NCBI RefSeq assembly: GCF_019464535.1
Contig: NZ_CP080507.1
Location: 3,720,001-3,752,000 of the forward strand
Direction: 5' to 3'
DNA: 32,000 nucleotides
Origin: Horticoccus luteus
Lineage (GTDB): Bacteria > Verrucomicrobiota > Verrucomicrobiia > Opitutales > Opitutaceae
A program made the position numbers and the translations under genes. The notes under the pieces are model-generated. The model was not told the DNA's origin. It saw nothing but the letters and a program-made list of their open reading frames with translations, and made no database searches. Positions 8,159 to 31,495 of this stretch are shown in pieces. Within the stretch, counting starts at the first letter, position 1. Each line of letters starts with the position of its first letter.

Positions 8159-8202
8159 TCGCCCGTGATTGAGCGCCCGAGCGACCTTTGGAGGCTGCGG
8201 CG

Positions 8203-11174: not shown

Positions 11175-11349
11175 AACGCGGGTCCGGCATTGGCCGGCGC
11201 GCCTGCTCGTGCGTTTTTCCGCGAGCCGCGAGGCCCAACTTGCCCCGCGTCGCGCGCAAGCACGTTTCGCGTTCACCTGCCGGGGCCGTTCGATTTTCCC
11301 ACGCGCGCGAGCGAACTTCCGTCTCTTAAACCCTGAATTGGATTTGCCC

Positions 11350-16217: not shown

Positions 16218-16303
16218 GATGGGGATTGGCACGACCAAGGCCCCCGCAGCGAGGACCCGCGCGGGAGGTTTGCGACGATCCATTCAGCCGCAAATCCCGT
16301 GTC

Positions 16304-16365: not shown

Positions 16366-16640
16366 CACGCATGGGTTGAAACCCAACGCGCGGCAGCCGT
16401 TCTGATTTTCTCCGAGCGACGGCCATCACCGGCGCTCCCCCTATCTCGATACCCACATGCCCGGCCGGGCGAATTGAAATCCTCCTGTGGCAACACATGA
16501 CCCACGAAGACCCTGCCATCTTTCCGACCCACTTATCGCAGCCGTCCACCGCGGGCATTGCGGTTAATCATAAAAGACTGCACGCGGCATCCATCACGAT
16601 CAACGCAGCCACGCCTTCCGGAGCGTCCACTACCACGACC

Positions 16641-17543
16641 ATGTTGATCCCATCCCGCACCTCGTTCGCGTGCGCACTGCTATCCGGGCTCTGCGCTTGG
16701 CTCGCACTGCCCGCCACATTACGCGCCGCCGCTTGGCCGAGCGAAGTCGTGGGCGACGCACAGGTTTACAAACAGACCGAGGACGGACCGCAAAAGCTCT
16801 ATGTGCTCGAGCCCGACGACTGGAAGCCTACCGACCGGCGGCCGGCGATCGTGTTTTTCCACGGTGGCGGATGGGTGGGCGGACCGCTGTCGCAATTCAA
16901 CGACCAAAGCCGCTATTTTGCGTCGCGCGGGTTGGTATGCATCCAAGTGCAATACCGCGTGGTTCATCCGCACACGACGACTCCCCCCATCGTGTGCATT
17001 GAAGACGCCCGCTCGGCGATGCGTTGGGTTCGTCAACACGCTGGGGCACTCGGCGTCGATTCGCACTGCATTGCCGCGGCCGGCGCATCCGCCGGTGGCC
17101 ATCTTGCGGCGCACACTGCGCTTGTCGCCGGCGTCGATGACCCATCCGACGATCTGACGATTTCTCCGCGACCGGACGCGCTGCTTCTTTTCAATCCTGT
17201 GCTCGACAACGGCCCGGGAGAATATGGCGCCGAACGCGTGCGGGATCGCGTTGCCGAACTGTCGCCCGCCGCCAACGTCCGCCGCGGCGCGCCGCCCACG
17301 GTGCTGTTTCTGGGGACTACGGACCCTCTCGTGCCGGTGGCGACTCTGCAACGTTTTCGCACCGCGATGCTCGCTGCCGGCGCGCGCTGCGAATTGCATC
17401 TCTACGCCGGCCAGACTCACGGATTTTTCAACCGCTCGAAGTCCGTCAAGTATTACAAGCTCACCCTCCACGAATGCGCCGCGTTTCTCACGTCGCTCGG
17501 CTGGCTGCCGGTCGACGCTCCGAACCTTCCATCGACACCCTAA
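16641..17543 (+). CDS. Alpha/beta-hydrolase esterase (HGGG / GxSxG, family IV / HSL-like), exported; candidate glycan deacetylase
   Basis: The oxyanion motif is VFFHGGGWVGG and the nucleophile elbow is GASAGGH. A candidate Asp (GTTDPLVP) and His (GQTHGF) follow. The ATG at 16641 gives the signal peptide MLIPSRTSFACALLSGLCAWLALPATLRAAA. Confidence 0.8.
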   Translation: MLIPSRTSFACALLSGLCAWLALPATLRAAAWPSEVVGDAQVYKQTEDGPQKLYVLEPDDWKPTDRRPAIVFFHGGGWVGGPLSQFNDQSRYFASRGLVCIQVQYRVVHPHTTTPPIVCIEDARSAMRWVRQHAGALGVDSHCIAAAGASAGGHLAAHTALVAGVDDPSDDLTISPRPDALLLFNPVLDNGPGEYGAERVRDRVAELSPAANVRRGAPPTVLFLGTTDPLVPVATLQRFRTAMLAAGARCELHLYAGQTHGFFNRSKSVKYYKLTLHECAAFLTSLGWLPVDAPNLPSTP

Positions 17544-17634: not shown

Positions 17635-19647
17635 TCAGTCCCACTGCGTAAGCGCCTTCGCCGCGGCATCCTCCGACACGTGGTCCCGTGATGTCACTGA
17701 TGCGGTTCGCGCGCCCGGCTCCCAGTTTTTTCCGCCCCGCTCGTAGGCGCCAATATCTGGCGCCCGTCCCACGACCTTGCCGGTGATTCCGTCAATCACC
17801 GTCCCGGCATCGATCAAGGCTGAACCTGCCCGCGGCCGGAAATCGAAATGGGCCGGATCAGCGAGCTGGGACTGCGCGCCCGCGGCGAGTTCCGCGGACA
17901 CAAAGTTATGGTCAATGCCGTCCTGCAGCGGGAAAGGGGTGCCGACGCGATCGCACGTGAATGTGGTCACCGCATTGTTTTCCGCGCGCGTGTGCTGATT
18001 CTGCACCGCGAGGAGCGGCGTCGTGCTGCGGGCCCAAGGCTTGTGCGGTTCCGGTTCAGTGTGCAGACTAAGACCGTTGCCACCGAAGCGGCCCGTGCCG
18101 ATTCCGAACACCGTGTTGTAACTCACTTCGTTGAAATCGCCCTTTACGATAATGCCGTCACGATCGCAGTCCCACACCACGTTGTGATGCACGATCAACC
18201 CGCGCGTCTGGTCATCGCCGCGAATGCCCAGTCCGCCGGTCAATCCTCCCGCGAAGACGTACGGTCGACAGCCATGCACCCAATTATAGCGGACGACCGA
18301 GCCAGCCACGCGCGGTGAACCGCCTTGCACGAGGGCAACATCCTTGGCGACGCGCCCGCCGTCATGAATGTCGCAATACTCGATCACGTTGCCCGGCCCG
18401 GCATGGCGCACCAGTGTGTTGCCGCCGTCGAAAATCGTGCAGTGCCGTAACGTGTTGCCCCGGGTTTTGTCGTCGTCTGGATGGTCGATCGAAACGACCG
18501 CGTAGGCCAGTGATCCGTCCCAGCATGCGTCATGGATAACGCAATCCTCGATCAGATTCTGCGATCCCCGCACCAGTAGGCCGCTAGTGTTCGCTCCGCT
18601 GATCGTGCAATGCCGCAACACATTCCGATCTCCATCGATCGCGGTCCGGTCGTCCGCCTGTTCCGCGGCCGGCTCCGACATGTGGAACGCGTAGACAGGA
18701 TGACGCAGCTCGCAGTCCGCGATTTCATTGTCGTCACCGCGCACTTGGACGGTGCACCCGACAAAACGAAAGCCGCGCACAGTAATATGATGGGCACCGT
18801 CGATGCGCAGCCCAAGGGCGCGGCGCTTGACCGTCACCGGCAAACGATTCGGATCAGCGCCTCCGGGCGCCCAGAAATACAACCGCGACGCCGGAGCATC
18901 GAAAAACCATTCACCGGGCGCATCAAGCGCCTCCAGCTTGCCGACGAGGTAGAAGCGATCGTCTTCCCACTCGGTCGTCTTGTCGGCATAGTTCGTGATC
19001 GGAGTGAGATCCCGCGCGTAAGTGAACGCCCCGCGCGCCGTGTCGCAGGCTTGCACGCGGCGCGTCCACGTCAGGAATTGGTGCGCGACATTCAACACCG
19101 CGGTCGCGCCGGTCCAATCGACGTGCGTCTCGGCCAGCGCGGGGTCGATTACCAAACCGTAACGGCTGCCGAGCCCAGTGGAAGCCCACGTGTTGCGGTC
19201 CCAGCGGTTATGCGGATTAGCATTCGGCCAGCGGGCCCACGTCTGCTGCTCTTCGCCCACAAAAACCTGCCGCACAGGACCGGCGAGTTCGATCACATGG
19301 ATTCTTTCGCGATAGACTTGCCAAGCGCCTCTGAGCAGATCGCTCCCGTCGATTATCACGTCTCCGTCGCCCGCCGCGGCGTAGGTGATGGAGGCATTCG
19401 CAGTTCCGCTCCGCTGCAGATGCAGCGTTTCCCGATAGGTGCCTGCATGCACGAGACATTTATCGCCGGGCGCCAGCGTTTTCCCGGCGCGGGCCAACGT
19501 CCGCCACGGCATCTTGGCTGTGCCCGCCGCATCGTCCGCCCCGTGGGGACTGACATGAAATGTCGCGGCCGCAGCGGTCAGTGTCACGGCGCCCACCACG
19601 CCCCCGAGAATCGCGCGCAGGAATTTCGTAGGTGGTGATAAAGTCAT
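17635..19647 (-). CDS. Secreted right-handed parallel beta-helix (PbH1) repeat protein, family unassigned
   Basis: A signal peptide is followed by FHVSPHGADDAAGTAKMPWRTLARAGKTLAPGDKCLVHAGTYRE, a DUF1565/pectate-lyase-fold N-terminal cap. Many N-x-(I/V)-x-x-C-x-I-x-D style repeats follow. The gene starts 3 nt after the upstream beta-helix gene. Confidence 0.75.
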   Translation of the reverse strand: MTLSPPTKFLRAILGGVVGAVTLTAAAATFHVSPHGADDAAGTAKMPWRTLARAGKTLAPGDKCLVHAGTYRETLHLQRSGTANASITYAAAGDGDVIIDGSDLLRGAWQVYRERIHVIELAGPVRQVFVGEEQQTWARWPNANPHNRWDRNTWASTGLGSRYGLVIDPALAETHVDWTGATAVLNVAHQFLTWTRRVQACDTARGAFTYARDLTPITNYADKTTEWEDDRFYLVGKLEALDAPGEWFFDAPASRLYFWAPGGADPNRLPVTVKRRALGLRIDGAHHITVRGFRFVGCTVQVRGDDNEIADCELRHPVYAFHMSEPAAEQADDRTAIDGDRNVLRHCTISGANTSGLLVRGSQNLIEDCVIHDACWDGSLAYAVVSIDHPDDDKTRGNTLRHCTIFDGGNTLVRHAGPGNVIEYCDIHDGGRVAKDVALVQGGSPRVAGSVVRYNWVHGCRPYVFAGGLTGGLGIRGDDQTRGLIVHHNVVWDCDRDGIIVKGDFNEVSYNTVFGIGTGRFGGNGLSLHTEPEPHKPWARSTTPLLAVQNQHTRAENNAVTTFTCDRVGTPFPLQDGIDHNFVSAELAAGAQSQLADPAHFDFRPRAGSALIDAGTVIDGITGKVVGRAPDIGAYERGGKNWEPGARTASVTSRDHVSEDAAAKALTQWD

Positions 19648-19650: not shown

Positions 19651-21918
19651 TTATCCCCGATCTTTGCTGGTGGCGGTTTGCTGCAGATCGATCGGCGACG
19701 TGCGTTTCAGTCGCTCCACCATCGGCTCCCGCAGCAGTCCGACATGGGTCGTGTCCACGGAGTGAATCCCGAGCGCCTCGGCCGGTGAATTCTCGCCAAA
19801 ACGAAAGTCGCCGTGCGCGGCGTCGCGAAACTGAGGATCGCCGATGCGACTCGCGCGATCATTACCCCACGCCCGCTGCATGCCCTGGATAAACGCTTCC
19901 GCGCCCACCCGGTCCGACGTGCTGAACAGATTGTGATCGGTCTTCGGCGGGACGATCGGCTTATGGTCGGGGTTGTAATTGCCGAGCATCGTATCACCGG
20001 GAGCGTTCCCGAAATAGCTGTTCACGGTATCAACTTCGTAGAATCGACTCTGGCCGGTGTAGGAAACGTAAACATTCCTTTCGACCCGAGAGTCGGGGCG
20101 GTCCGAGGTAATGCGCAGCCCCCCGTTCACCATGATATTGTTCCAAGTGGCATTGAAGTCCTTGATCACGATCCCGACGCCGAAAGTCACATTGTCGGTG
20201 ATCGTGCAATAGGATTGATCATCATCCGTGCGGATCGCGGCGGACCCGCCCATGTTGTAAATGACGTTCCGCTGGATGACGTTTCCCTTCCCTGCACTGG
20301 AGAGGTAGATCCCATTGCCGTCGCGCAACACCTGCATCGCATCGTGAATCTCGTTATCGCGCACCACGTTGTCACGGGTGTGCGCAAATGGCAGAATCGC
20401 CTCGGTCGTGCGCGGGTTGCCTATTTCGCGCCAGCGCATCAGGCGGAGGTTTTCGCGGAGGTTCGGGGGAAATTCCGGCCGCGGCACTTTCGGCGTCGCG
20501 ATGGCGAAATAGCGCGGCCGCACCCCGTCAAGGACCATCCCGTTATAGGGCAGATCATGCAGATAATTATGCGCCACGAGATTTCCTCCGCTTTGCCAGA
20601 GGAACACCGCGGGCGCGTGCCACCACAACTCACCCAAGTGATGAAATTCGTTGTCCACGATCTCATCGCCGCCGTTCACGTCTCGCGTGCCGGGCCCATA
20701 ACCGCACAGCAACACGCCGCCCGCGCCCAAATGGCGAAACGTGTTGCCACGTATCTCGAGGGCACGCGCGTAAAGGTCGGCCCGGATACCTTGCCCTCCC
20801 GCCGCCTCGAAGATGCAGTCGCGCACCGCACAATTTTCCGCCACCCGGAAGCGCAGGCAGGCATCGTCCTTGTCCCACATCGCCCAGTCGTGCTGCAGTC
20901 CGGCATCGTCGCCGCGCCAGGCATCGCGATCGGTGTGCGCAAAGGTCAGACCGACAAACTCGACCCCGCGCACCGGCTCGTCCGGAGCACCACCGCAGCC
21001 TTCCTCTCCAGCCACACGCACGAGCGTCGTGACGGCGGGAGCCACGATATTCGGTCCGGGCTCCGCACCGCGCGGCCAAAAATAAACGCGCCCTTCGGCG
21101 CGACGGAGCACCCACTCGCCCGGCGTATCCAGCGACTCGATTACGTTCTCCACCCAAAATTCACCCGTGGGCGTATACGTGGCCGGAAGCGTGGTGCGCG
21201 CCGTCAGCGCCGCTTCGTCCACCGATGCCAGTGAGAGGTAGTTCACCAGCCAGTTGTGGTTGGGACGGCTGAGAATCTCCACGTCGTCCAAATTCGGCCA
21301 CGATTTGATCGACCCCGCGGGAAACTCGATCACATCGCGCTTTTGCAGGCGGTCCGCCAATCCGCGGTGCTTGCCACGCGCGAGATAGCGCGCCGAACGC
21401 GCCCGCGGGAGACGCTCCATCTCGTCGTAAAGCGTGCGAAACGCCCGGCCGTGCAACGCCTCCGGCACGCTCGCCATCCATAATTTGCCGCGCGCCGCTT
21501 CCGCGGTGCCTGCGGGTTCCTCGCCGCTGGCCACGCGCGTCCAGCTCCGGATCGGCACGCCCCCGCTCACAATCGCGCGCCCGCCCGCAGACTCAAAACT
21601 TAGCACCCCGCCGGTTGCGGGCGTATCCTCGCGTCCGAGCACCAACGGCGCCGCGAGCCGGTAGATGCCATCGGCCAGCAGGATGTGGATACGCGCGCCC
21701 GCATCGGCGGCCCGCGCCGCCCGCGCCAACGCCATTGCGCGCGGCAACGTTGCCACGGGTGCCCCGGCTCCTCCCGACGCCCCGTCGTCGCCCCGCGGCG
21801 ACACATGTATCCGCGTGTCCTCTCGCGCGACCAGCGTCGCCGGCTCTCCTCCCCACAAAACGGGCGCGGTGAGCGCCGCCAAATGAACCCAACGAAAAAG
21901 CGAAGAGCGAAACATCAT
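19651..21918 (-). CDS. Secreted right-handed parallel beta-helix repeat protein, family unassigned
   Basis: The ATG at 21918 gives the signal peptide MMFRSSLFRWVHLAALTAPVLWG. Next comes IHVSPRGDDGASGG..ATLPRAMALA. Repeated beta-helix rungs follow (NCAVRDCIFE, IRGNTFRHLG, IVDNEFHHLG, NVVRDNEIHD, NVIQRNVIYN). Confidence 0.75.
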   Translation of the reverse strand: MMFRSSLFRWVHLAALTAPVLWGGEPATLVAREDTRIHVSPRGDDGASGGAGAPVATLPRAMALARAARAADAGARIHILLADGIYRLAAPLVLGREDTPATGGVLSFESAGGRAIVSGGVPIRSWTRVASGEEPAGTAEAARGKLWMASVPEALHGRAFRTLYDEMERLPRARSARYLARGKHRGLADRLQKRDVIEFPAGSIKSWPNLDDVEILSRPNHNWLVNYLSLASVDEAALTARTTLPATYTPTGEFWVENVIESLDTPGEWVLRRAEGRVYFWPRGAEPGPNIVAPAVTTLVRVAGEEGCGGAPDEPVRGVEFVGLTFAHTDRDAWRGDDAGLQHDWAMWDKDDACLRFRVAENCAVRDCIFEAAGGQGIRADLYARALEIRGNTFRHLGAGGVLLCGYGPGTRDVNGGDEIVDNEFHHLGELWWHAPAVFLWQSGGNLVAHNYLHDLPYNGMVLDGVRPRYFAIATPKVPRPEFPPNLRENLRLMRWREIGNPRTTEAILPFAHTRDNVVRDNEIHDAMQVLRDGNGIYLSSAGKGNVIQRNVIYNMGGSAAIRTDDDQSYCTITDNVTFGVGIVIKDFNATWNNIMVNGGLRITSDRPDSRVERNVYVSYTGQSRFYEVDTVNSYFGNAPGDTMLGNYNPDHKPIVPPKTDHNLFSTSDRVGAEAFIQGMQRAWGNDRASRIGDPQFRDAAHGDFRFGENSPAEALGIHSVDTTHVGLLREPMVERLKRTSPIDLQQTATSKDRG

Positions 21919-22001
21919 GGGGCAGGAAGGTGGGGATACGCAACGCGGGACGGGGCGGGACCAGCGCACCTTGCGTGCAGCGACGCCGCAACCAAGGCGC
22001 G

Positions 22002-22015
22002 ACTAAATCAGTTAA
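22002..22015 (-). promoter_or_regulatory. Locus motif copy F: TTAACTGATTTAGT
   Basis: Minus strand. 83 nt separate it from the beta-helix operon ATG at 21918. It lies 23 nt downstream of the LacI-family stop codon. Confidence 0.5.
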
Positions 22016-22031
22016 CGATTTTCCAAATCGT
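22015..22031. promoter_or_regulatory. Perfect inverted repeat ACGATTT-TCC-AAATCGT abutting motif copy F
   Basis: The 7-nt arms are perfectly complementary with a 3-nt spacer. It overlaps motif F by 1 nt and ends 7 nt from the LacI stop (22039-22041). The AT-rich stem is too weak and short-looped to be a good intrinsic terminator. Confidence 0.35.
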
Positions 22032-22038
22032 CCACTGG

Positions 22039-23103
22039 TCACCGCGGCTCGCGCGCTTTCTTTCGCGCGGCCGGCAAACCCCGCACCGTGCGGCCTTCCT
22101 GCCACGTGCCGTCCACGTGCGTGCCATGCGGCACGGCGTTGAAACCGCGCTGGTTGCTCTGGAGCAAGCTGTTCAATATCTCGACGGCAAATTCCCCCAT
22201 TTCGCTGCGATGCTGCTGGATCCCGCTCGCCTGCGGCACGTCGTCCGCGACATTCAAACTCGCGTAACCGATGTCCTGCGGGATGCGCAAACCTTCAGCG
22301 CGCACCGCTTCAAAAAAACCATCCGAGCGGCTGATGACCGCCTCCGGGCGTTCCCGCCGCAGCCAGCTTCGAATCTGTCCCACCGGATCCTCCGGCTGCA
22401 GCACGAGCGCCGATACCCGATTCGCCTCCAGCGTGCGCGACTGCAGATAAGCGTAACCCGCCTCCCATTGGTGCAGCGTGCGATCAGAGAGATCCGTCCA
22501 CACGATGATCCCGATCCGCGTGTAGTTGCGCGCGCGCAGTTGCTCCCACGCCAGCAAAATGCCCGCGAAGTGGTTCGGCACGATGTGATGAAACAACGGA
22601 TATTGCACTGGCCGCTCCAGCGCGACGACCGCGAAGTCCTTCCACTCCAGATCGAGCCGGTCGCGCGGATCTTCGAACGGCGCGAGAATCACGCCCCGGA
22701 TGCCGCGGTTGCGCAGCACCGCGCTGAACCGCCGCGCCGAACACCCCTGTTCGCGCGCCCAGAAGACCTGCAGCGAATACCCGAGCGACCGCGCGCGCAA
22801 CGTTACGCCTTCGATCGCCTGCTTCGCACTTGTCCGCGTCGTCCACGCATCCCGACTCGACCAGTTCGTCACGAGCGCGATCACCGAAAAATCCCGATGC
22901 ACCCGCAGGCGGCTGCGGTGCGCGGCCAGCGCCGACAACCCCGGATCCGGCGCGTAATTCAGCTCCCGCGCCATCGCCTTCACCTTCGCCGTCGTCGCCG
23001 CCGAAATCGAAGGATGGTTGCGCAACGCCAGCGACACCGCCGCCACGCTCAGGCCCAGCCGCCCGGCAACATCCTTCAAAGTGGTGCGTTTTTCCCAGCT
23101 CAC
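22039..23103 (-). CDS. LacI-family transcriptional regulator
   Basis: The N-terminal HTH is TTLKDVAGRLGLSVAAVSLALRNHPSISAATTAKVKAMARELNYAPD. A periplasmic-binding-protein-like effector domain follows. The start codon is a GTG at 23103. Confidence 0.9.
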   Translation of the reverse strand: MSWEKRTTLKDVAGRLGLSVAAVSLALRNHPSISAATTAKVKAMARELNYAPDPGLSALAAHRSRLRVHRDFSVIALVTNWSSRDAWTTRTSAKQAIEGVTLRARSLGYSLQVFWAREQGCSARRFSAVLRNRGIRGVILAPFEDPRDRLDLEWKDFAVVALERPVQYPLFHHIVPNHFAGILLAWEQLRARNYTRIGIIVWTDLSDRTLHQWEAGYAYLQSRTLEANRVSALVLQPEDPVGQIRSWLRRERPEAVISRSDGFFEAVRAEGLRIPQDIGYASLNVADDVPQASGIQQHRSEMGEFAVEILNSLLQSNQRGFNAVPHGTHVDGTWQEGRTVRGLPAARKKAREPR

Positions 23104-23117
23104 TTAATTGATTTAGC
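23104..23117 (+). promoter_or_regulatory. Locus motif copy G: TTAATTGATTTAGC
   Basis: Plus strand. It directly abuts the LacI GTG start codon and lies 49 nt upstream of the GTG start of the cytoplasmic sulfatase (23167). Confidence 0.5.
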
Positions 23118-23120
23118 GGA

Positions 23121-23136
23121 GTGCGACTTTTCGCAC
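23121..23136. promoter_or_regulatory. Inverted repeat GTGCGA-CTTT-TCGCAC between motif G and the sulfatase start
   Basis: The 6-nt arms are perfect with a 4-nt spacer. It lies in the 63-nt lacI/sulfatase divergent region. It could be an operator or a 5'-UTR hairpin. Confidence 0.3.
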
Positions 23137-23166
23137 CGGATTCACCACGTCAACGTAATTGCTCCC

Positions 23167-24570
23167 GTGGCTGCCCCTTCTCCCTTTCCTGCGCCGTCCT
23201 CCGGTCGGCCGCCGCCGAATGTCGTCTTCATCATCGCCGACGATCACCGGCACGATGCGCTCGGCGTGTGCGGGCATCCGGCGGTGCGCACGCCCCACTT
23301 GGACGCCTTGGCGCGCCGCGGCACCCATTTCGCGCGCACGTATCAAATGGGCGGGCTCATCGCCGCCGTGTGTTCGCCTGCCCGCGCCGCGCTCTTGACT
23401 GGCTGCAATGTCATCCGCGCCGACGCCGCTCCCTCTCCCTCCAGCCAGCCCGACCGCCTGGTGGCCCTCGCTCCCGATCTCACGACGCTCCCCGAGCGAT
23501 TTCGCGCCGCCGGTTACGAGACGTTCATCACCGGAAAATGGCACAACGACCCGGCGGCGCTTCAACGCTCGTTCACCGGCGGACGCCGCATCTTTTTCGG
23601 CGGCATGTCCGATCATCATCACGTGCCGCTGCGGGATTATTCGCCGACCGGCGACTACTCGGCACCGCCTTACTACGAAGCAGGCTTCTCCACCGAACTC
23701 TTTTGCCGCGCTGCGGAGGAGTTTATTCAGCAACCCCGCGGACCCTTCTTCCTCTATCTCGCACTCACGTCGCCCCACGATCCCCGCACCCCGCCCCCGG
23801 AGTTCGCCACGTTATATCCGCCGGCCGACATTCCGTTGCCGGCGAATTTTCTGCCTGACCATCCCTTTGATAACGGCGAAATTGCGATCCGCGACGAACG
23901 CCTCGCCGACCATCCACTGCAACCCGATGTCCTGCGGGCGCATCTCGCCGCCTACTATGGCATGATCAGCCATCACGACGCTCAACTCAGCCGCGTCTTC
24001 ACCGCTCTGCGCGAGGCTGGCTTGGAATCCAACACGCTGGTCGTTTACGTCTCCGATCACGGGTTGTCGCTCGGCAGCCACGGTTTGCTCGGCAAACAGA
24101 ATCTCTACGAAGAAAGCGTGCGCGTGCCGCTGCTGCTGGCGGGCCCCGGCGTGACTGCCGGGCGCACCGAAACAGCGCCGGTTTATTCCCTCGATCTCTT
24201 CTCGACGCTGCCCGCGCTGGCCGGCCTGCCCGCTGCGCCCGCTCACGACAGCCGACCGTTACCGCTCACGGCATCAACGCCTGACGGCCGCCGGCACTTC
24301 GTTTTCGCGCTCTATAAGGATTGTCAGCGCATGGTCAGCGATGGGCGGTGGAAACTCATCCGCTACTACGTGCACGGGCAGGAGCGGCGACAACTTTTCG
24401 ACTTGGACAACGACCCCGCGGAGCTCACCGATCTCTCCACCGTGGCCGCGCACCAACCCGTCATTCATCGCCTGCTCGCCCGCTTGAACGCCTGGCAGAG
24501 CTCCATCGGCGATCGCTGGCTGCCGCCCGCGCTTCTGCCGGGTGATGTCGACTCGGATCTCGTCGCATGA
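23167..24570 (+). CDS. Sulfatase (S1, Cys-type) without a signal peptide (predicted cytoplasmic)
   Basis: NVVFIIADDHRHD is followed by the CSPARAALLTG motif. It forms the C-terminal part of the artefactual 961-aa track ORF. The first plausible start after the divergent lacI gene is the GTG at 23167, giving (M)AAPSPFPAPSSGRPPPNVVF. No hydrophobic N-terminal segment exists in any possible extension. The stop overlaps the next gene's start in ATGA (24567-24570). Confidence 0.85.
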   Translation: MAAPSPFPAPSSGRPPPNVVFIIADDHRHDALGVCGHPAVRTPHLDALARRGTHFARTYQMGGLIAAVCSPARAALLTGCNVIRADAAPSPSSQPDRLVALAPDLTTLPERFRAAGYETFITGKWHNDPAALQRSFTGGRRIFFGGMSDHHHVPLRDYSPTGDYSAPPYYEAGFSTELFCRAAEEFIQQPRGPFFLYLALTSPHDPRTPPPEFATLYPPADIPLPANFLPDHPFDNGEIAIRDERLADHPLQPDVLRAHLAAYYGMISHHDAQLSRVFTALREAGLESNTLVVYVSDHGLSLGSHGLLGKQNLYEESVRVPLLLAGPGVTAGRTETAPVYSLDLFSTLPALAGLPAAPAHDSRPLPLTASTPDGRRHFVFALYKDCQRMVSDGRWKLIRYYVHGQERRQLFDLDNDPAELTDLSTVAAHQPVIHRLLARLNAWQSSIGDRWLPPALLPGDVDSDLVA

Positions 24571-26180
24571 CCCATCTGCGCGTCAGCCCCCTCGATCTGG
24601 GGATCGTGCTCGGATATTTCGTGTTTACCATCGCGCTCGGCGCTTGGTTTTCCCGTCGCAAGGTCGAGACCGGCGAAGGCTTCTTCCTCGCCGGCCGCTC
24701 CGCGCGCTGGCCCGTCATCGGCGCGTCGCTTTTTTCTGCGAACATCTCCAGTCAGCAATTCGTCGGCATGGCCGGCCTCGCCTACACCCTCGGACTCGTC
24801 GCCGGCGCGTTCCAATTGGTGGGCGCGGGCTGCTTCCTCCTCCTCGCGCTGTTTTTTGTGGACGTTTATCTGGGGCTGAAGCTCACCACCGCGCCGGAAT
24901 TCTTCGAGCGCCGCTACGGTTCCGGCACGCGGCTCTTCGTTGCGGGCATCAACGTCGTCATGATCCTCGCCGCCAACCTCACCGCGGCGCTCTATGCCGG
25001 CGCCACGGTGCTGACCACGTTGCTGGGCTGGACCGCTCCCGGACAATTTCTGATCGCGGTCGTGGCGATCGCGGGCGGCGCGGCGATCTGCGCCATTTTC
25101 GGCGGGTTGCGTTCGGTCATGTGGATCGACGTGTTTCAAGCCTCGGTGCTCGTCCTCGGCGGGCTCGTGACGCTCTTCGCCGCTCTCGCTCACGCCGGCG
25201 GCCTCGCCGCGCTGCTCCCCATGCACGATCCCGCGGGCCACTCCATGTGGTCGGTCGTGCAACCCTGGAACCATGCCTTCGGCTGGCTGCCGCTGCTGAC
25301 CGGCGCCGTGATCCTCGGCGTGCATGGACATTGCACCGATCATGACTACGTCCAACGCGCGCTCGCGGCCCGCAGTGTTTATCATTCGAAAATGGGCGCG
25401 GTATTCGCCGCGTTGCTCAAGATCCTGGCCCTCTTCATCATCGCTGCACCGGGTGTCATCGCGGCGCGGCTCATTCCCGGCCTCGCCCATCCGGATCAAG
25501 CCTACGCCGAAATGGTGGCGCATTTCGTTCCACCGGGACTGGTCGGCTTGGTGCTCGCCGGACTGCTCGCGGCGATTCTCGGCACGATGGCGGCCGGGCT
25601 GGCCGCGTCGTCCTCGATGCTCACCTATGATTTCGCGCTGAAAATATTCCCCCGGCTCGACGAACGCGCCCGCGTGCGCCTCGGCCGCGCGTTGATGGCG
25701 CTCATTCTCGTGGGTTGCAGCGCGGCGGCGCCGCTGATCGCCCGCTACTCCGGGTTATTCGCGTATCTCGTGAAACTCTGGTCGCTCCTCGCTCCGCCGG
25801 TTTTTGTTTGTGTTGTCTTCGGCATTTTTTCCCGGCGCGCCGACAATCGCGGCGCCATCGCCACGCTCATCGTCGGTTCCACCTTGGGGCTCGCCGCGTT
25901 TCTCGTGCTCGATTCCCCCGCCGCGGTTGCGAAGCTGCCTGTTTACCTGCGCAACCCGCTCAACATCGGCTTCACCATCACGCTCGTTTGCACCGCGGTG
26001 ATGCTCGCCGCCAGCCGCGGTCGATTCTCGCCGGCCGCGCGCCTCGCCTTCGCGCAACGCGCAGCGGTGCCCATGAGCGATCGCGAACAACGCCGCTACC
26101 GCCTCTTTCTCGCCAGCGTGCTCATCGTCCTCGTCGCCGTCATCGTGCTGTTCTCCCCGCTCGGTTTGCTGCGGGCGTGA
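24567..26180 (+). CDS. Sodium:solute symporter family (SSF, SGLT-like sugar transporter)
   Basis: GFFLAGRSARWPVIGASLFSANISSQQFVGMAGLAY is the hallmark SSF/SGLT N-terminal block. The 537-aa product is strongly hydrophobic with multiple TM segments. Confidence 0.9.
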   Translation: MTHLRVSPLDLGIVLGYFVFTIALGAWFSRRKVETGEGFFLAGRSARWPVIGASLFSANISSQQFVGMAGLAYTLGLVAGAFQLVGAGCFLLLALFFVDVYLGLKLTTAPEFFERRYGSGTRLFVAGINVVMILAANLTAALYAGATVLTTLLGWTAPGQFLIAVVAIAGGAAICAIFGGLRSVMWIDVFQASVLVLGGLVTLFAALAHAGGLAALLPMHDPAGHSMWSVVQPWNHAFGWLPLLTGAVILGVHGHCTDHDYVQRALAARSVYHSKMGAVFAALLKILALFIIAAPGVIAARLIPGLAHPDQAYAEMVAHFVPPGLVGLVLAGLLAAILGTMAAGLAASSSMLTYDFALKIFPRLDERARVRLGRALMALILVGCSAAAPLIARYSGLFAYLVKLWSLLAPPVFVCVVFGIFSRRADNRGAIATLIVGSTLGLAAFLVLDSPAAVAKLPVYLRNPLNIGFTITLVCTAVMLAASRGRFSPAARLAFAQRAAVPMSDREQRRYRLFLASVLIVLVAVIVLFSPLGLLRA

Positions 26181-26292
26181 CGGGCGTCGCGCGCCGGGGC
26201 GGCAGTCGTTCGCGCACCCAGACGGACTAAACCCGGTGCCGGCCCGACCTTCGCCTTGCGCCACATCGACAAACGGCGTGCTATCGTCGGAC

Positions 26293-27456
26293 ATGACGTT
26301 CGACTTCGACACGCCGCTCAACCGCGTCGGCTCCGATTCCCAAAAGTGGCAGAAATACGCCGGCCGCGACATCCTGCCCATGTGGGTCGCCGACATGGAT
26401 TTTCGCTCGTCGCCCGCCATCATCGATGCCCTGCAACGCCGCGTCGCGCACGGGATCTTCGGCTACGCTCGCCCGGTGGCCTCGACGATCGACGCTGTCG
26501 TCGACGCTTTCGCGCGCCGCTATGGTTGGGCGATCGATCCGGCGTGGCTCGTCTGGCTCCCTGGCCTCGTCGGCGGCCTCAACCTCACCGCGCAGGCCCT
26601 CACCGCCCCGGGTGACGAAGTGCTCACCCTCACGCCCGTTTACCCGCCGTTCATGTCGGCGCCGAAAAACAGCGGCCGCGTGTCGGTGCCGGTGCCGTTT
26701 GCCCTCCACACCACCGCGGCGCGTTGGGAAATCGATTGGGTGGCCCTCGAACGCTCCGTCACGCCGCGCACGAAGCTCTTCTTTTTGTGCAACCCGCACA
26801 ACCCCCTCGCCCGCGTGTGGCGGCGCGACGAACTCACGCAACTCGCCGAATTCTGCGCGCGGCATGATCTCATTCTCTGCTCGGATGAAATTCACTGCGA
26901 CCTGATCCTCGATCCCGCGCTGCCGCACATCCCCAGCGCGTCGCTCAGCAGCGAGCTCGCCCAGCGCACCATCACCCTCATGGCGCCGAGCAAGACCTAC
27001 AACATTCCCGGGCTGGGCACCTCGCTCGCGATCATCCCCGACGCCACGTTGCGCGCGCGTTTCGTTCGCGCCGCCGCCGGCATCGTCGCCGAAGTCACCG
27101 CCCTCGGCTTCACCGCGTGCGAAGCCGCCTACCGCGACAGCGAACCCTGGCGCCAGGCGTTGCTCGCGTATCTGCGGGGCAATCGCGATCACCTCCTCTC
27201 GTTTCTCCAACGCGAGCTTCCCGCCGTGCGCGTCGAGGCGCCGATCGAGGCGACCTATCTGGCGTGGCTTAACGTCAGCGCACTCGGTCTTGCCGATCCC
27301 ATCGCCCACTTCGAAGAACACGGCGTCGGCCTCAGCGAAGGCGCGTATTTCGGTGCGAGACGCGGCGACTATGTGCGCCTCAACTTCGGCTGCCCGCGCG
27401 CCACGCTGAGCGAAGGCCTGGCCCGGATGAAACGCGCCGCCGCGGCCGCGCGCTAA
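26293..27456 (+). CDS. PatB/MalY-family PLP-dependent C-S lyase (cystathionine beta-lyase type aminotransferase class I/II)
   Basis: The product is collinear with B. subtilis PatB: SQKWQKY, PMWVADMDFRSSPAIIDAL, HGIFGY, FLCNPHNP, SDEIHCDL, the PLP-lysine block APSKTYNIPG, and RLNFGCPRATLSEGLARM. I used the ATG at 26293. Confidence 0.88.
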   Translation: MTFDFDTPLNRVGSDSQKWQKYAGRDILPMWVADMDFRSSPAIIDALQRRVAHGIFGYARPVASTIDAVVDAFARRYGWAIDPAWLVWLPGLVGGLNLTAQALTAPGDEVLTLTPVYPPFMSAPKNSGRVSVPVPFALHTTAARWEIDWVALERSVTPRTKLFFLCNPHNPLARVWRRDELTQLAEFCARHDLILCSDEIHCDLILDPALPHIPSASLSSELAQRTITLMAPSKTYNIPGLGTSLAIIPDATLRARFVRAAAGIVAEVTALGFTACEAAYRDSEPWRQALLAYLRGNRDHLLSFLQRELPAVRVEAPIEATYLAWLNVSALGLADPIAHFEEHGVGLSEGAYFGARRGDYVRLNFGCPRATLSEGLARMKRAAAAAR

Positions 27457-27896
27457 GGCAGAATCCGCGCCTGCCACTCCGGCGGCAGCACCCGCGGCCG
27501 ATACGCCCCGAACAGCCGGTAACGCACCCGCGCCACCAGCCGATACGCGGCGTCGCGCCAACTCCGCGGAATCGCGCGGCACCACGCCACCGCGCGCCAC
27601 GCGCCGCCCAAAGCCGCCAGCACGGCCAGCACCGCATCGGTGCGCACGAGGATCGTGACCCGCCGCCCCGCCCAATCCGGCACGTAAACCGCCGTGTCGA
27701 AATCTGTCGTCGGCAGATCGCGGGCGCGCAGAAACGCCTGCGCCGTTTCACCCTGCAACGGCGCGAACCACAACTTCCCCCGCCGATCGCTGCGCAACAA
27801 AAGCCGCACCAAACCCTGACACAGCCCGCATTCGCCGTCGAACAGCAACACCCGTTGCGGGACGGACGGCGAAGAAGCGGTGGAGGGCTCGGGCAT
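27453..27896 (-). CDS. DCC-family thiol-disulfide oxidoreductase (DUF393)
   Basis: VLLFDGECGLCQGLVRLLLRSD carries the DxxCxxC signature of the DCC family. Its stop overlaps the patB-like stop convergently (27453-27456). Confidence 0.8.
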   Translation of the reverse strand: MPEPSTASSPSVPQRVLLFDGECGLCQGLVRLLLRSDRRGKLWFAPLQGETAQAFLRARDLPTTDFDTAVYVPDWAGRRVTILVRTDAVLAVLAALGGAWRAVAWCRAIPRSWRDAAYRLVARVRYRLFGAYRPRVLPPEWQARILP

Positions 27897-27976
27897 GCTC
27901 CGTTGTCGCTCCCACCGGCGCGCGACGCAACTCCCCTTGCGGCGACACGCCGCCGCGCTTTACCTCTTCCGCTTCG

Positions 27977-29089
27977 ATGCGTCTTGGTCCTTACGAACTT
28001 CCTTCGCCCTTGTTCCTCTCGCCGCTGGCCGGCTACACCAATCTGCCGATGCGCGTGACGCTGCGCGAACTCGGCGGGCTCTCCTGGACCACGACCGATC
28101 TCGTCAACGCGCGCTCCCTCCTCGAACGCAATCGCACCGCGCTCAAACTCGTCGCCTCCGCCTCCGAAGACCGGCCGTTTGCCATCCAGCTCTTCGGCAG
28201 CGTGCCCGAGGAAATGCGCGACGCCGCCATCGTCTGCGAAGAACTGGGCGCGCAGTCGATCGACATCAACATGGGCTGCCCCGTGCGCAAGGTCGTGAGC
28301 ATCGGCGGCGGCTCCGCCATGATGACCGAGCTCGATAAAACCGCGCGCCTCGTGCGCGGCATGATCGACGCCGTCAAGATTCCCATCACCGCCAAAATGC
28401 GCCTCGGCTGGGATGACGCCAATCTCACCGCGCCCGACCTCGCCCGCGTCCTCGAAGACACCGGCGTCGCCGCCATTTTCGTGCACGGCCGCACCCGCGC
28501 GCAGGGATTTTCCGGCGGCGTCAACCTCGCCGGCATCCGCGCCGTCGTGCAGGCCGTGCGGGCGATTCCCGTCATCGGCAACGGCGACGTCACCACGCCC
28601 TCCGCCGCGCAGCGCATGCTTGCCGAAACGGAATGCGCGGGCGTCAGCATCGGCCGCGGCGCGTTTTACGATCCGTGGATTTTCCGCCGCACCGCGCACT
28701 TGCTGCGCACCGGCGAGCTGTTGCCCGAGCCGACGTTCACCGAGCGACTGCGGGTGATGCGCCGGCACTTCGAACGCTACTGCGATTTCTACGGCGAGGA
28801 ACACGGTGCGCGGCTCTTTCGCAAGGTCGCGCCGTGGTATGCGAAACGCTTCGGCCCTGCGAAACCGTTCAAACGGCGGATCATCACCATCACCTCGCGC
28901 GCCGATTTCGACGCCGCGATCGCCGAGTATCTCGCGTGGCGCGCGCCGTTTTGCGGCGCCGACGGCGAACTCCTGCCCAAGTATGAACCCGCGCCGATGA
29001 TCGCCTCGTTCGAACGCCCCGACGGCGAGCCCGACGTCTTGCAGCGCGAGAGCATCCCCGTGCCCAAAGGCCCCGTCGACGTCTGGTAA
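27977..29089 (+). CDS. tRNA-dihydrouridine synthase (Dus family)
   Basis: The Dus TIM-barrel signatures are LSPLAGYTNLPMR, FAIQLFGS, IDINMGCPVRKV, VTAKMRLGWD, FVHGRTR and IGNGDV. Confidence 0.9.
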   Translation: MRLGPYELPSPLFLSPLAGYTNLPMRVTLRELGGLSWTTTDLVNARSLLERNRTALKLVASASEDRPFAIQLFGSVPEEMRDAAIVCEELGAQSIDINMGCPVRKVVSIGGGSAMMTELDKTARLVRGMIDAVKIPITAKMRLGWDDANLTAPDLARVLEDTGVAAIFVHGRTRAQGFSGGVNLAGIRAVVQAVRAIPVIGNGDVTTPSAAQRMLAETECAGVSIGRGAFYDPWIFRRTAHLLRTGELLPEPTFTERLRVMRRHFERYCDFYGEEHGARLFRKVAPWYAKRFGPAKPFKRRIITITSRADFDAAIAEYLAWRAPFCGADGELLPKYEPAPMIASFERPDGEPDVLQRESIPVPKGPVDVW

Positions 29090-29134
29090 CCCGTGCGCAT
29101 CCGCGCGTCTTACTCCCCTTTTCCTGCCCCGCTC

Positions 29135-31495
29135 ATGAAACGATCCGCCTCCGCCCCGTCGCCTGAAACGCTCATCTTCCGCGGCGCGTCCTGGCTCTGG
29201 CCCCACGATCTGCGTTGGGATCTCGTCAACGCCTACGCGCTTTTCCGTCGCGGTTTTCAACTCGACCGCGTGCCGCGGCGCGCACCGCTGTTCATCACCG
29301 CCGACCAATCCTACCAGCTCTTCGTCAACGGTGCTTTCGTCGCACGCGGCCCCGCGCGCGGCTTTCAAGCGCACTGGCCTTACGACGAAGTCGACCTCGC
29401 CCGCTGGCTCGTGCCGGGCCGCAACGTGATCGCAGTCCGCGCCTACAATCCCGGCGCGAGCAACTTCCAATACGTTTCCCAAGGCTACGCCGGGCTGCTC
29501 GTGGCCGCGCGTTGGGGCCGCCTCTCGCTCGCGAGCGACGCTTCGTGGCGCTGCCTCCCCGATCCCGGTCCACGCCGCGATACGATCCGCACCGCCATTC
29601 AGCTTTTCCCCCAGGAACACTTCGATGCGCGCCCCGGCCCGGTCGATTGGACGTCGACGGCCTTCGATGATCACGCGTGGCTGACGCCCGCCACGCAGCC
29701 CTTCGGTGTGCTGCCTTGGGCCTCTCTCGAACCGCGCGGCATTCCACTGTTGCGCGAAGTGGCGCAACGCCCCGGGCGCATCATCGGCCGCGCGGCCGGC
29801 GACTGCGGAATGGATTGGGCTACGACACGCAACGTCTACCTCCTGCGGCAAAACGAAGACCATCGGCACGCGCCAGCGACCGGCGACGCGGCCGAGTTTG
29901 ACGTTCCTGCGACGGGTCCCGGGCGTTTTCGCAGTGTCTTGATCGACCTCGGTCAGCCCGTCGTGGGCAACTTCTCCGTGGTCGTCGCCGGAGGGCGCGG
30001 CGGCGAGATCATCGATTTCATTTACACGGAAATCATCGACGCGGCGACCCTCGCGCCTGATTTGCGCTTTCCCGACGGCAGCCGCGTGACGCTGAGCGCC
30101 CGCCTCATCTGCCGCGCCGGACGCACCGCTCACTTTTTCTATCATCCGTTCGGGTTCCGGTTCGCGACGATCACCGTCCGCGAATCCGCGGCGCCGCTGC
30201 AGATCTCCCTCACGTTTCGCAGCACGCTTTACCCGCTGGAACGGCGCGGCGCGTTCCACAGCTCCGAGCCTGGGCTCGAACAAATCTGGGAAACCTGTGC
30301 GCGCTCCCAGCAGAACTGCATGCTCGATGCCTACGTCGATACGCCGTGGCGCGAGCAGGCCCAGTGGTGGGGCGACGCCCGCGTGCAGGCGTGGAACACC
30401 TTTCATCTCAGCGGCGACGCACGACTATTTCGGCGCGGAATTTTCCAGATCGGCGCGCAGACCACCGCCGACGGCGTGACCTACGGCCATGCACCGACGA
30501 TGGCGCACAACTGCGTGCTGCCCGACTTCACGCTCATCTGGATGCTCACGCAGTGGGACTACTACTGGCAGACCGGCGACCTGGAACCCTTTCGCGCCCA
30601 ACGAGCCACCGTGGCGCGCGCCCTCGCTTATTTCGAAGCCCACACCGGCCCCGACGGGCTCGTCACGCACGATCCGCGTTACTGGCTTTTTCTCGACTGG
30701 ACCGACCTGCCCAAAGACGGCGCGCCGACCGTCTACAACCTCTGGCTCGTGCTCGCCCTCGAACGTCTCGCCGCGATGCACCGGCTCACGCGCGAAGCGG
30801 CCGTGGCGGTTCGCTACGAACGCTGGGCGCGCCGCCTGCGTGCAACGTTGCGCACGCTCGTCGATGCGCGCGGCCTCCTGCGCGATGGTTTCGATGCCAA
30901 TCGCAAACGTCTCTCCAGCACCTCGCCCCACGCGCAAACCCTCGCGTTGCTGGCCAACCTCACCCCGCGCCACGCCGCGGCACAGGAACGATTTCTCCTC
31001 GCCTATCTCGCCGACGAATCGCCGCACCGCGCGCAGCCGAGCGCCTATTGGATCACTTACGTTTACACCGTGCTCGCCGCGCGCGGCCACGGACGCGCCG
31101 TGGTCGACCATCTGCATCCCCGCTGGGCGCCGATGATCGCCCACGGTTCGACGTTCGAACTGTTCCGCGATCACCCCGAATTCCCCATCAGCCATTCGCA
31201 CGCGTGGTCGGCGCATCCGCTCTTCCATCTCATGCAGACCATCGGCGGAGTTCGCCAGGCGTCCGTCGCGTGGAAAACCATCCGCTTCGCCCCGGTGTTC
31301 CTCGGCGCCTCCGGCGGCTGCACCGTGCCGACGCCCCGCGGCGAAATCGTTTCGTCCTGGCAGCGTCATGCCGATCACACTGAGGTCCGACTCAGTTTGC
31401 CCCGCGGGGTCACGGCCGAAATCGCGCTGCCCGGTTTGCCGCGCCGCCGCGTGACGGGCTCCCGGAGGTGGGCGCTCCCCGCCGACGTTGCGTAA
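29135..31495 (+). CDS. GH78-like (alpha-L-rhamnosidase-type) six-hairpin glycoside hydrolase, no signal peptide
   Basis: The N-terminal region LFITADQSYQLFVNGAFVARGP resembles the rhamnosidase N domain. DAYVDTPWREQAQWWGDARVQ resembles the D-x-P-x-R-E-x-x-x-W-x-GD motif of the GH78 catalytic (alpha/alpha)6 domain. I used the ATG at 29135. Confidence 0.65.
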   Translation: MKRSASAPSPETLIFRGASWLWPHDLRWDLVNAYALFRRGFQLDRVPRRAPLFITADQSYQLFVNGAFVARGPARGFQAHWPYDEVDLARWLVPGRNVIAVRAYNPGASNFQYVSQGYAGLLVAARWGRLSLASDASWRCLPDPGPRRDTIRTAIQLFPQEHFDARPGPVDWTSTAFDDHAWLTPATQPFGVLPWASLEPRGIPLLREVAQRPGRIIGRAAGDCGMDWATTRNVYLLRQNEDHRHAPATGDAAEFDVPATGPGRFRSVLIDLGQPVVGNFSVVVAGGRGGEIIDFIYTEIIDAATLAPDLRFPDGSRVTLSARLICRAGRTAHFFYHPFGFRFATITVRESAAPLQISLTFRSTLYPLERRGAFHSSEPGLEQIWETCARSQQNCMLDAYVDTPWREQAQWWGDARVQAWNTFHLSGDARLFRRGIFQIGAQTTADGVTYGHAPTMAHNCVLPDFTLIWMLTQWDYYWQTGDLEPFRAQRATVARALAYFEAHTGPDGLVTHDPRYWLFLDWTDLPKDGAPTVYNLWLVLALERLAAMHRLTREAAVAVRYERWARRLRATLRTLVDARGLLRDGFDANRKRLSSTSPHAQTLALLANLTPRHAAAQERFLLAYLADESPHRAQPSAYWITYVYTVLAARGHGRAVVDHLHPRWAPMIAHGSTFELFRDHPEFPISHSHAWSAHPLFHLMQTIGGVRQASVAWKTIRFAPVFLGASGGCTVPTPRGEIVSSWQRHADHTEVRLSLPRGVTAEIALPGLPRRRVTGSRRWALPADVA

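Follow-up and report, generated by a model that had tools for sequence, protein, structure and literature searches.

The sulfatase and symporter genes

The 32,000-nucleotide stretch of DNA from Horticoccus luteus, a soil or water member of the Opitutaceae, that is analyzed here (NCBI RefSeq assembly GCF_019464535.1, contig NZ_CP080507.1, positions 3,720,001 to 3,752,000; hereafter the window, numbered from its first letter) carries, to judge from its genes, a fucoidan-type utilization locus. Within it, a gene for a formylglycine sulfatase without a signal peptide overlaps the gene for an SGLT-like transporter of the sodium:solute symporter family (SSF), and a gene for a LacI-family regulator is encoded divergently from the pair. 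An earlier note on this DNA had read the pair as a possible route by which a still-sulfated sugar is imported and then desulfated in the cytoplasm. The features concerned are as follows.

22039-23103, minus strand: LacI-family regulator, divergent from the sulfatase-symporter pair (PF00356, 5e-12; PF13377)
23104-23119: candidate operator of the LacI type, TTAATTGATTTAGCGG (core AAnnGnTT), directly beside the lacI start codon and some 50 bp before the start of the sulfatase
23167-24570, plus strand: S1 sulfatase of the Cys (formylglycine) type, 467 residues, with a GTG start and no signal peptide, predicted to be cytoplasmic (PF00884, 6e-51)
24567-24570, plus strand: ATGA overlap of sulfatase stop and symporter start, read from the sequence
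24567-26180, plus strand: SGLT-like sodium:solute symporter, 537 residues (PF00474, 6e-54; TIGR00813)

The GTG at 23167 is the first usable start of the sulfatase because its frame contains no ATG, GTG or TTG back to the lacI start at 23103, that is, none in the 63 bases from 23104 to 23166. Only 16 residues (VAAPSPFPAPSSGRPP), which are non-hydrophobic, precede the conserved PNVVFIIADD strand. The frame is open as far back as 21685, and this extension is an arginine-rich antisense reading of lacI. Over the first 520 codons of the frame from 21685, the maximum 12-residue Kyte-Doolittle mean is 1.29, so that nothing resembling a signal peptide is present there. The resulting 961-residue open reading frame (ORF; 21685-24570, plus strand) has no family match of its own and was rejected as a high-G+C artefact. 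Among database homologues, the 120 best, which are 53-70% identical and about 445-475 residues long, corroborate this start: all 120 begin 2-20 residues before the PN motif. In an AlphaFold2 model of the sulfatase (predicted local distance difference test 91.1, predicted template modelling score 0.92), residues 1-16 are unstructured and form no N-terminal helix. The other three sulfatases of the window have leaders of the Sec type (MKMKLPRLLLPLFRALGLAAFAAASAGA, MKTNVSVFAVALVLVAVTGLRGA and MKIALFIALLAACLPGGARA), with a positive N-region followed by a hydrophobic core of 12-20 residues. The earlier note had claimed signal peptides for these three enzymes, and for the fourth a first start at 23167 with non-hydrophobic extensions; both claims are borne out, the second by frame and hydropathy.

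The sulfatase matches PF00884 over residues 17-353 (173.9 bits, cutoff 25) and, with 53.7 bits, the C-terminal domain PF16347. Its maturation motif, CSPAR, which contains the nucleophile cysteine, occupies residues 69-73 and is followed by AALLTG. C69, P71 and R73 are unchanged throughout a 41-sequence alignment of relatives, and a set of 146 relatives shows no variation at D25, D26, K124, H126, H204, D297 or K310. To judge from these residues, the enzyme looks catalytically competent. A fold search with the model returned more than 400 matches to the sulfatase superfamily in the PDB, the best with a TM-score of 0.79. The nearest solved sulfatases are only 20-28% identical, with S1_11, S1_19, S1_30, S1_46 and others about equally distant, and neither structure prediction nor the PDB fold search identified a close characterized relative or subfamily.

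Position 298 is a histidine here and an asparagine in many S1 enzymes. Phosphonate monoester hydrolases presumably also have a histidine at this metal-ligand position (D297-H298), and three of them (4uph, 2vqr and 4upl) are among the best structural and sequence matches; none of the scores against NCBIfam models for arylsulfatase and PehA comes near its cutoff. It could thus be that the enzyme is a phosphonate-monoester or phosphodiester hydrolase, or a promiscuous arylsulfatase, and not primarily a carbohydrate sulfatase. This is very unlikely, however, given that the carbohydrate sulfatases S1_11 and S1_46 match equally well (TM-score 0.75-0.79) and that the neighbouring genes are consistently related to sulfate or glycans: sulfatases, GH29, GH141-like and GH78 proteins, SulP permeases and the anaerobic sulfatase-maturating enzyme (anSME).

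A clade of leaderless sulfatases

Leaders were scored in 149 relatives of the sulfatase, found among the matches listed from species-representative genomes and metagenomes. The metagenome matches listed are mostly distant and of the exported type, and served the leader statistics and not the survey of adjacency. Leaders were called by a heuristic combining hydrophobicity and an RRxFL motif, not by SignalP; individual calls are approximate, but the contrast between the two types described here is not. In 55 of the relatives, the first strand is followed by (A)DDH(R), and 52 of these have no candidate leader: a start codon lies 2-13 codons upstream, with no hydrophobic or twin-arginine segment. 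The remaining 94 have DDQ, DDM or DDL at this point, and 80 carry a Sec-like hydrophobic segment or an RRxFLK twin-arginine translocation (Tat) motif. The leaderless DDH type and its exported sister type differ accordingly (Fisher p = 3e-23). Two of the three exceptions, in the relatives' loci numbered L005 and L083, have hydrophobic segments 62 and 271 residues upstream that were judged spurious; the third, in L113, combines a DDHQ motif with a leader that is plausible. The missing leader described in the earlier note is thus a property of the whole clade.

A neighbour-joining tree, computed without bootstraps and used only for its unrooted split, separates the 55 DDH sequences, 2 others and two outgroups from 89 exported-type sequences. 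Rooting with distant sulfatases was attempted and dropped, as the root fell inside the leaderless group. The leaderless type was found in Opitutae, Poribacteria, Caldilineaceae and other Chloroflexota, Latescibacterota, one alphaproteobacterium and several Paenibacillus. Because Paenibacillus has no periplasm, its leaderless enzyme is cytoplasmic. The comparison argues that the H. luteus sulfatase is, in all likelihood, located in the cytoplasm as well.

It is extremely improbable that the enzyme is exported after all, through a misassigned start, an unconventional signal or a ride on an exported partner. Its localization is predicted from sequence, and enzymes of the sister clade use the Tat system, which is able to carry folded partners. 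Against this, the stretch from lacI to the catalytic core offers no alternative start codon, leaders are missing throughout the clade, Gram-positive members included, and no conserved partner gene with a Tat signal is adjacent.

Many of the exported sister sulfatases, in Planctomycetota, Acidobacteriota, Latescibacterota and others, have RRxFLK Tat leaders instead of Sec leaders (L021, L038-L040, L045, L047, L053-L055, L057, L062, L066, L075 and others). These leaders suggest that folding, and probably also formylglycine maturation, takes place before export.

Two positions adjacent to the metal, 27 (23245-23247) and 298 (24058-24060), co-vary with the presence of a leader. In the leaderless clade, position 27 is histidine in 55 of 55 sequences and position 298 in 54 of 55, versus glutamine (83 of 91) and asparagine (72 of 91), respectively, in the exported type. 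Position 298 is also histidine in the leaderless YidJ of Escherichia coli, and asparagine in the exported window sulfatase at 13006-14430. These histidines may mark a switch from calcium to a transition metal in the cytoplasm. The correlation between His298 and the lack of a leader was not accepted as independent evidence, since it is mainly a clade effect and not the outcome of repeated independent events; the exported-type clade includes 14 sequences that combine a leader with His298 and 11 that combine the lack of one with Asn298.

Linkage to the symporter

The sulfatase stop codon (TGA, 24568-24570) overlaps the symporter start codon (ATG, 24567-24569), as the earlier note had claimed and the sequence confirms. 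Overlaps of four bases are by themselves common in operons. It is not the overlap as such but its conservation in relatives that exceeds chance: ATGA is kept in 7 of 9 adjacent sulfatase-symporter pairs, at sulfatase identities down to about 55%. It recurs in L003, L004, L005, L012, L082 and L083, and gaps of 9-10 nucleotides replace it in L002 and L163. From the overlap, the earlier note had argued for stoichiometric co-expression. Co-expression, by translational coupling, stands; a fixed stoichiometry does not, coupling being no argument for it.

The conservation of adjacency, on which the earlier note had made its reading depend, was also surveyed, and the reading withstood this check. Nine relatives (L002, L003, L004, L005, L012, L082, L083, L163 and L166) have an orthologue of the symporter immediately 3' of the sulfatase, and in two more the pair is rearranged within the same LacI unit. 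In L162, the symporter lies across the divergent LacI gene from the sulfatase; in L058, it is about 5 kb away and the LacI gene adjoins the sulfatase. The symporter orthologues of the Opitutae loci are 58-81% identical to that of the window. The adjoining symporter in L164 is a different one, with 27% identity, and no symporter is present at the sulfatase locus in L041. By a crude proxy, 35 of 119 sulfatase homologues have a longest contig exactly as long as that of one of 119 symporter homologues; 18 of these 35 size-matched contigs are 12 kb or shorter. A linkage that survives changes in gene order and orientation points to function rather than mere inheritance, and the two proteins are very probably functionally linked.

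The symporter and its binding site

The symporter scores well above the cutoffs of PF00474 (183.9 bits, cutoff 22.8) and TIGR00813 (230.2 bits, cutoff 184). Its best solved relative is vSGLT (1e-52 over residues 7-459), and human SGLT1 and SGLT2 are also among the best; all have the LeuT-fold SSF architecture in common with it. Structures of carriers for sialic acid, monocarboxylates, vitamins and iodide are far weaker matches than the SGLTs (1e-8 to 1e-16 for iodide and monocarboxylates).

In vSGLT, galactose is contacted by Q69, E88, N260, K294 and Q428, along with a stacking tyrosine (PMC8037263). Only Q69 and K294 of the canonical sugar-coordinating set are retained in the window symporter: E68 and E88 are replaced by glutamine, N260 by glycine and Q428 by valine, and Y262-Y263-W264 becomes His-Gly-His (His-Gly/Ser-His across homologues). 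Of 120 symporter homologues, 107-120 share these changes and the motifs SSQQF, FQ and VHGHCTDH. Judged by this site, the symporter is not a plain hexose carrier, and the loss of acidic and aromatic residues together with the gain of histidines would fit a ligand that is larger and negatively charged, for instance a sulfated sugar. A sulfated sugar had been called unusual for an SSF transporter in the earlier note; anionic substrates are not unusual in this family, as the sialic acid transporter SiaT (5nv9), a weaker structure match here, illustrates. At the Na2 site, AIVSS is replaced by AILG[T/S], with S364 becoming glycine, and one hydroxyl is retained in at least 96 of 120 homologues. The vSGLT hydroxyls of this site are those that we take to be numbered S364 and S365.

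The closest architectural match to the gene pair is yidK-yidJ of E. coli K-12, which also has an overlap of 4 nucleotides (yidK 3858401-3860116, yidJ 3856911-3858404). YidJ is a putative sulfatase of the Cys type, likewise leaderless, that starts four residues before PNFLFVMTD and, like the window enzyme, has a histidine at the metal-ligand position. The order of the two genes is reversed relative to the window, with yidK, for the putative SSF transporter, first, and the divergent regulator, yidL, is of the AraC type, not the LacI type. Sequence identities are low (26% between the window sulfatase and YidJ, 30% between the window symporter and YidK). The E. coli pair does not lie in a polysaccharide locus, and YidK has the canonical pair of glutamates and the FYW residues that are replaced in the window symporter. 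The best NCBIfam models of the two window proteins are NF010322/PRK13759 ("arylsulfatase", 202 bits, below the equivalog cutoff of 481) and NF007790/PRK10484 ("solute:sodium symporter family transporter", 236.5 bits, below the equivalog cutoff of 401), which we take to be the models of YidJ and YidK, respectively.

The proteins could be co-regulated without acting in sequence, with the symporter importing an ordinary non-sulfated sugar or another solute set free in the periplasm, and the sulfatase acting on a substrate that enters otherwise, either small sulfate esters that are scavenged (as for Pseudomonas AtsA) or an endogenous sulfated metabolite. The symporter does most resemble galactose and glucose carriers (vSGLT, 1e-52), and an E. 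coli yidK deletion has a galactose growth phenotype, while yidK expression correlates with that of the fucose genes (PMC5293155). Many leaderless-clade sulfatases also lack an adjacent importer, and L165 and L167 have the symporter but not this sulfatase. However, the overlap is conserved and the linkage outlasts gene rearrangements; three of the five residues that hydrogen-bond the sugar in vSGLT, as well as the stacking tyrosine, are replaced; and free fucose is already served by a FucP-like permease. The regulator is a sugar-type repressor of the LacI family in a glycan locus, not part of a sulfur-starvation regulon, and Paenibacillus members of the sulfatase clade occur within operons for oligosaccharide ATP-binding cassette (ABC) importers. 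We therefore regard mere co-regulation as unlikely, but if the transporter carries an ordinary sugar, the finding shrinks to an ordinary co-regulated pair.

The LacI regulator and the intergenic region

Orthologues of the LacI-family regulator (40-85% identity) adjoin the sulfatase in L002, L003, L004, L005, L058, L082, L083, L162, L163 and L164. The element TTAAnnGATTnAG is found at the same position as the candidate operator in L002, L163, L004, L082, L003 and L162, and the regulator probably represses both divergent units via this element at 23104-23119. A palindrome, GTGCGA-N4-TCGCAC (23121-23136), was also considered as an operator and rejected; it is unconserved, and matches with two or fewer mismatches are no commoner than in shuffled sequences. 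A scan of 22900-27700 for sigma-70 promoters and intrinsic terminators found nothing above shuffle expectation.

The divergent starts of lacI and the sulfatase lie just 63 bp apart, and most of this space is taken up by the conserved TTAAnnGATTnAG and GTCAACGTAATT. There is no sequence resembling a Shine-Dalgarno motif ahead of the GTG at 23167, and, in a gap so crowded, this suggests that the 5' untranslated regions are very short or absent.

The surrounding glycan locus

The window has a G+C content of 63%, and the closest relatives of its proteins are from metagenome-assembled genomes of Opitutaceae and Opitutus. Beyond the pair and its regulator, it contains the following features.

3646-5586, minus strand: GH29 alpha-L-fucosidase
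5632-8025, minus strand: TonB-dependent receptor
8188-9567, plus strand: FucP-like L-fucose:H+ permease (TIGR00885, 275.7 bits, cutoff 280.4)
9660-11174, plus strand: GH29 alpha-L-fucosidase
11347-12957, plus strand: exported sulfatase with signal peptide MKMKLPRLLLPLFRALGLAAFAAASAGA, likely start inside ORF 11110-12957, 27% identical to the leaderless sulfatase
13006-14430, minus strand: exported sulfatase with a Sec leader, 29% identical to the leaderless sulfatase
14451-16283, minus strand: exported sulfatase with a Sec leader, likely start at an internal MKIALFIALLAACLPG, 25% identical to the leaderless sulfatase
16497-17543, plus strand: esterase
17635-19647, minus strand: GH141-like beta-helix protein
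19651-21969, minus strand: GH141-like beta-helix protein
26236-27456, plus strand: PatB-family C-S lyase (TIGR04350, 442 bits, cutoff 340)
27977-29089, plus strand: DusB
29093-31495, plus strand: GH78-like (rhamnosidase-type) protein

The FucP-like permease is, by its family assignment, a separate entry for free fucose. The PatB-family lyase gene starts 56 nucleotides 3' of the symporter, at the place where the closest relatives have a SulP sulfate permease. It was considered as a member of the operon and rejected, and is treated as unrelated because it is missing from every related locus. A 1008-residue ORF on the minus strand (27380-30406) is antisense to dusB and the GH78 gene and has no family match of its own, and was likewise set aside as a high-G+C artefact. 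The GH78-like protein has no obvious signal peptide (…MKRSASAPSPETLIFRG…), and a second enzyme of the locus may thus also act in the cytoplasm. A conserved link between the sulfatase and GH78 is not claimed, as the window protein is 21% identical to the GH78-like neighbour in Paenibacillus.

Neighbouring genes in relatives

In the two closest relatives, L002 and L163 (70-71% identity), the order is sulfatase, SSF symporter and SulP permease (PF00916 with a STAS domain). SulP is followed in L002 by an anaerobic sulfatase maturase, a cytoplasmic enzyme of the radical S-adenosylmethionine (SAM) type (TIGR03942, 516 bits, cutoff 349), and in L163 by a CLC channel. Such neighbours agree with a release of sulfate inside the cell. 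In Paenibacillus, Anaerolineales and several metagenome contigs, the clade sulfatase belongs to operons that also encode a solute-binding protein and a pair of CUT1-type ABC permeases, and these operons often include leaderless GH29, GH78 and esterase genes. Counted by homology, SSF or ABC importers lie near 21 of the 55 leaderless-type genes versus none of the 94 exported-type genes, a count that is biased because its queries were taken from loci of the leaderless type. When all ORFs with five or more transmembrane segments within 2.5 kb are counted instead, without this bias, the figures are 20 of 55 versus 14 of 94, an enrichment that is weaker but remains significant (p = 0.004).

These neighbours also bear on the possibility that the SSF protein is itself a carrier of inorganic sulfate or a related oxyanion, serving the sulfate balance around a cytoplasmic sulfatase. 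The binding site has lost both glutamates and its aromatic sugar platform and has gained histidines, ATP sulfurylase is encoded beside the symporter orthologue in L167, and the SSF family has anion carriers, of which the sodium/iodide cotransporter is a weak structure match. Such a role is nonetheless highly improbable: the similarity to SGLT (1e-52) far exceeds that to iodide and monocarboxylate carriers (1e-8 to 1e-16), the sugar-site residues Q69 and K294 are kept, the carrier would be redundant with the dedicated SulP next door in L002 and L163, and sodium-driven sulfate import makes little sense beside cytoplasmic sulfate release.

The neighbourhood in L167 (L167:1-14600) is strongly sulfur-themed. 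Beside the symporter orthologue, which is 54% identical, it encodes ATP sulfurylase and two arylsulfotransferases, along with a leaderless protein of the alkaline phosphatase superfamily and a radical-SAM/SPASM (anSME-like) protein fused to rotamase domains. In sponge-symbiont Poribacteria (L009-L032), the leaderless sulfatase is in a conserved gene order with no importer adjacent. Its neighbours there include an enolase-superfamily dehydratase (checked against Pfam) and, as judged by eye, a large HEAT-repeat-like protein, a glycerate kinase and two apparently phytanoyl-CoA-dioxygenase-like proteins.

Comparison with known systems

Pseudomonas AtsA and the rhizobial choline sulfatase are classical cases of cytoplasmic sulfatases. 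In the standard picture of polysaccharide loci, desulfation takes place in the periplasm and neutral monomers are then imported (PMC9067506, PMC6262041). In models for Bacteroides glycosaminoglycan utilization and for marine flavobacterial utilization of ulvan and carrageenan, all desulfation is periplasmic and only neutral monomers cross the inner membrane. The periplasmic S1 sulfatases BT1596, BT4656 and BT3333 (PMC9067506) share with the window enzyme their superfamily, their catalytic residues and their setting in a glycan utilization locus that includes a TonB-dependent receptor. This Bacteroidota and marine model also fits the other three sulfatases of the window, whereas the sulfatase at 23167-24570 has no leader and is coupled to an inner-membrane importer.

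A closer functional parallel is the ats2 cluster of Bifidobacterium breve UCC2003, which reportedly encodes a transporter, not of the SSF, an intracellular sulfatase and an anSME. The logic is the same, in that a sulfated monosaccharide is imported and then desulfated inside the cell by a formylglycine sulfatase whose maturation depends on a radical-SAM enzyme, and the anSME is paralleled by that in the L002 cluster. The strain is reported to grow on N-acetylglucosamine-6-sulfate, which is imported, using this intracellular sulfatase (Egan 2016 via PMC7326374). The systems differ in the Gram-positive host, the transporter family and the host-mucin substrate, and a close relationship between the B. 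breve sulfatase and the clade described here is not demonstrated. An exact-phrase literature search on "cytoplasmic sulfatase" and similar terms found nothing bacterial beyond B. breve.

To our knowledge, no role has been explained for the leaderless sulfatases of bacteria in the Planctomycetes-Verrucomicrobia-Chlamydiae (PVC) superphylum, which make up a fifth to a quarter of hundreds. In two Kiritimatiellales strains (F1 and F21) of the same superphylum, predictions place 22-27% of about 500 sulfatases in the cytoplasm (PMC6388578). They were made in bulk and propose neither a partner transporter nor a pathway, as opposed to the defined clade, partner and regulatory unit described here. The earlier note had considered cytoplasmic desulfation atypical, which was overstated: sulfatases with a predicted cytoplasmic location are common in PVC bacteria (PMC6388578), B. 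breve provides a precedent (PMC7326374) and yidK-yidJ has the same overlap. A cytoplasmic sulfatase with an importer is thus already known; what is new here is an uncharacterized sulfatase clade together with an SGLT-like clade that has a distinctive site.

A proposed route of import followed by desulfation

The gene structures, the clade-wide lack of a leader, the conservation of linkage and overlap, the intact catalytic residues and the changes at the transporter site were observed directly. They suggest a model in which sulfatase, symporter and LacI regulator together make up a small cytoplasmic finishing module of a fucoidan-type locus. The TonB-dependent receptor would admit sulfated oligosaccharides rich in fucose and rhamnose to the periplasm, where they would be trimmed by the exported GH29 and GH141-like enzymes, the esterase and the three exported sulfatases. 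Free fucose would enter via the FucP-like permease. Residual still-sulfated sugar, most likely a mono- or disaccharide, would be taken up by the SGLT-like symporter, and its sulfate removed in the cytoplasm by the leaderless formylglycine sulfatase that is co-translated with it. The freed sugar would then enter catabolism, and the sulfate could be assimilated or expelled, perhaps through the SulP permease that is next door in relatives. The location of the enzyme, the transported substrate and its sulfation, the role and direction of SulP and the regulation by LacI are parts of this model that we infer.

We consider that this model probably holds. A sulfatase without an export signal, by heuristic and comparative evidence, and a coupled importer conserved in relatives are what such a module would contain. 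The reading of the earlier note is supported by the leaderless clade, the conserved adjacency and the SulP and maturase neighbours, with transport of a sulfated sugar as its inferred component.

Several observations weigh against the model. Besides the approximate nature of individual leader calls, the linkage is frequent and not obligate: of three loci found via the symporter, the sulfatase adjoins only in L166, and the symporter has no adjacent sulfatase in L165 (Pelagicoccus) or L167. Conversely, an adjacent importer is missing for most members of the leaderless clade in Poribacteria and Caldilineaceae, and the importer enrichment by the unbiased count is only modest. Neither SulP nor anSME nor formylglycine-generating enzyme genes are found within the window. 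With the nearest solved sulfatases at only 20-28% identity, substrate specificity is not readable from them. The coupling ion is uncertain because the Na2 site is only half conserved. Finally, E. coli YidK retains the Glu/Glu and FYW residues, and the remodelled site is thus not general to sulfatase-linked SSF transporters.

A broader reading is more tentative, and we would put it forward only as a possibility that is rather doubtful. The SGLT-like clade with the His-Gly-His signature might be the first SSF subfamily for sulfated sugars, working with a partner clade of cytoplasmic sulfatases, perhaps metal-switched, in which His27 and His298 replace glutamine and asparagine and which spans several phyla (Opitutae, Poribacteria, Caldilineaceae, Paenibacillus, Latescibacteria and others). 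If this is true, a substantial share of the microbial desulfation of algal and host glycans would be cytoplasmic, contrary to current periplasmic models. Confirmation would add a new substrate class for SSF transporters and assign a role to a sulfatase clade that is widespread, and the analogy would offer a lead on E. coli yidK and yidJ. It would also change how the localization of sulfatases is interpreted in the genomics of carbon- and sulfur-cycling organisms. The locus offers a concrete, testable unit, in which a regulator is joined by a clade of leaderless sulfatases and by a partner clade of transporters that can be recognized by their binding-site signature, and with it the role of the many "cytoplasmic" sulfatases of PVC bacteria becomes directly testable.

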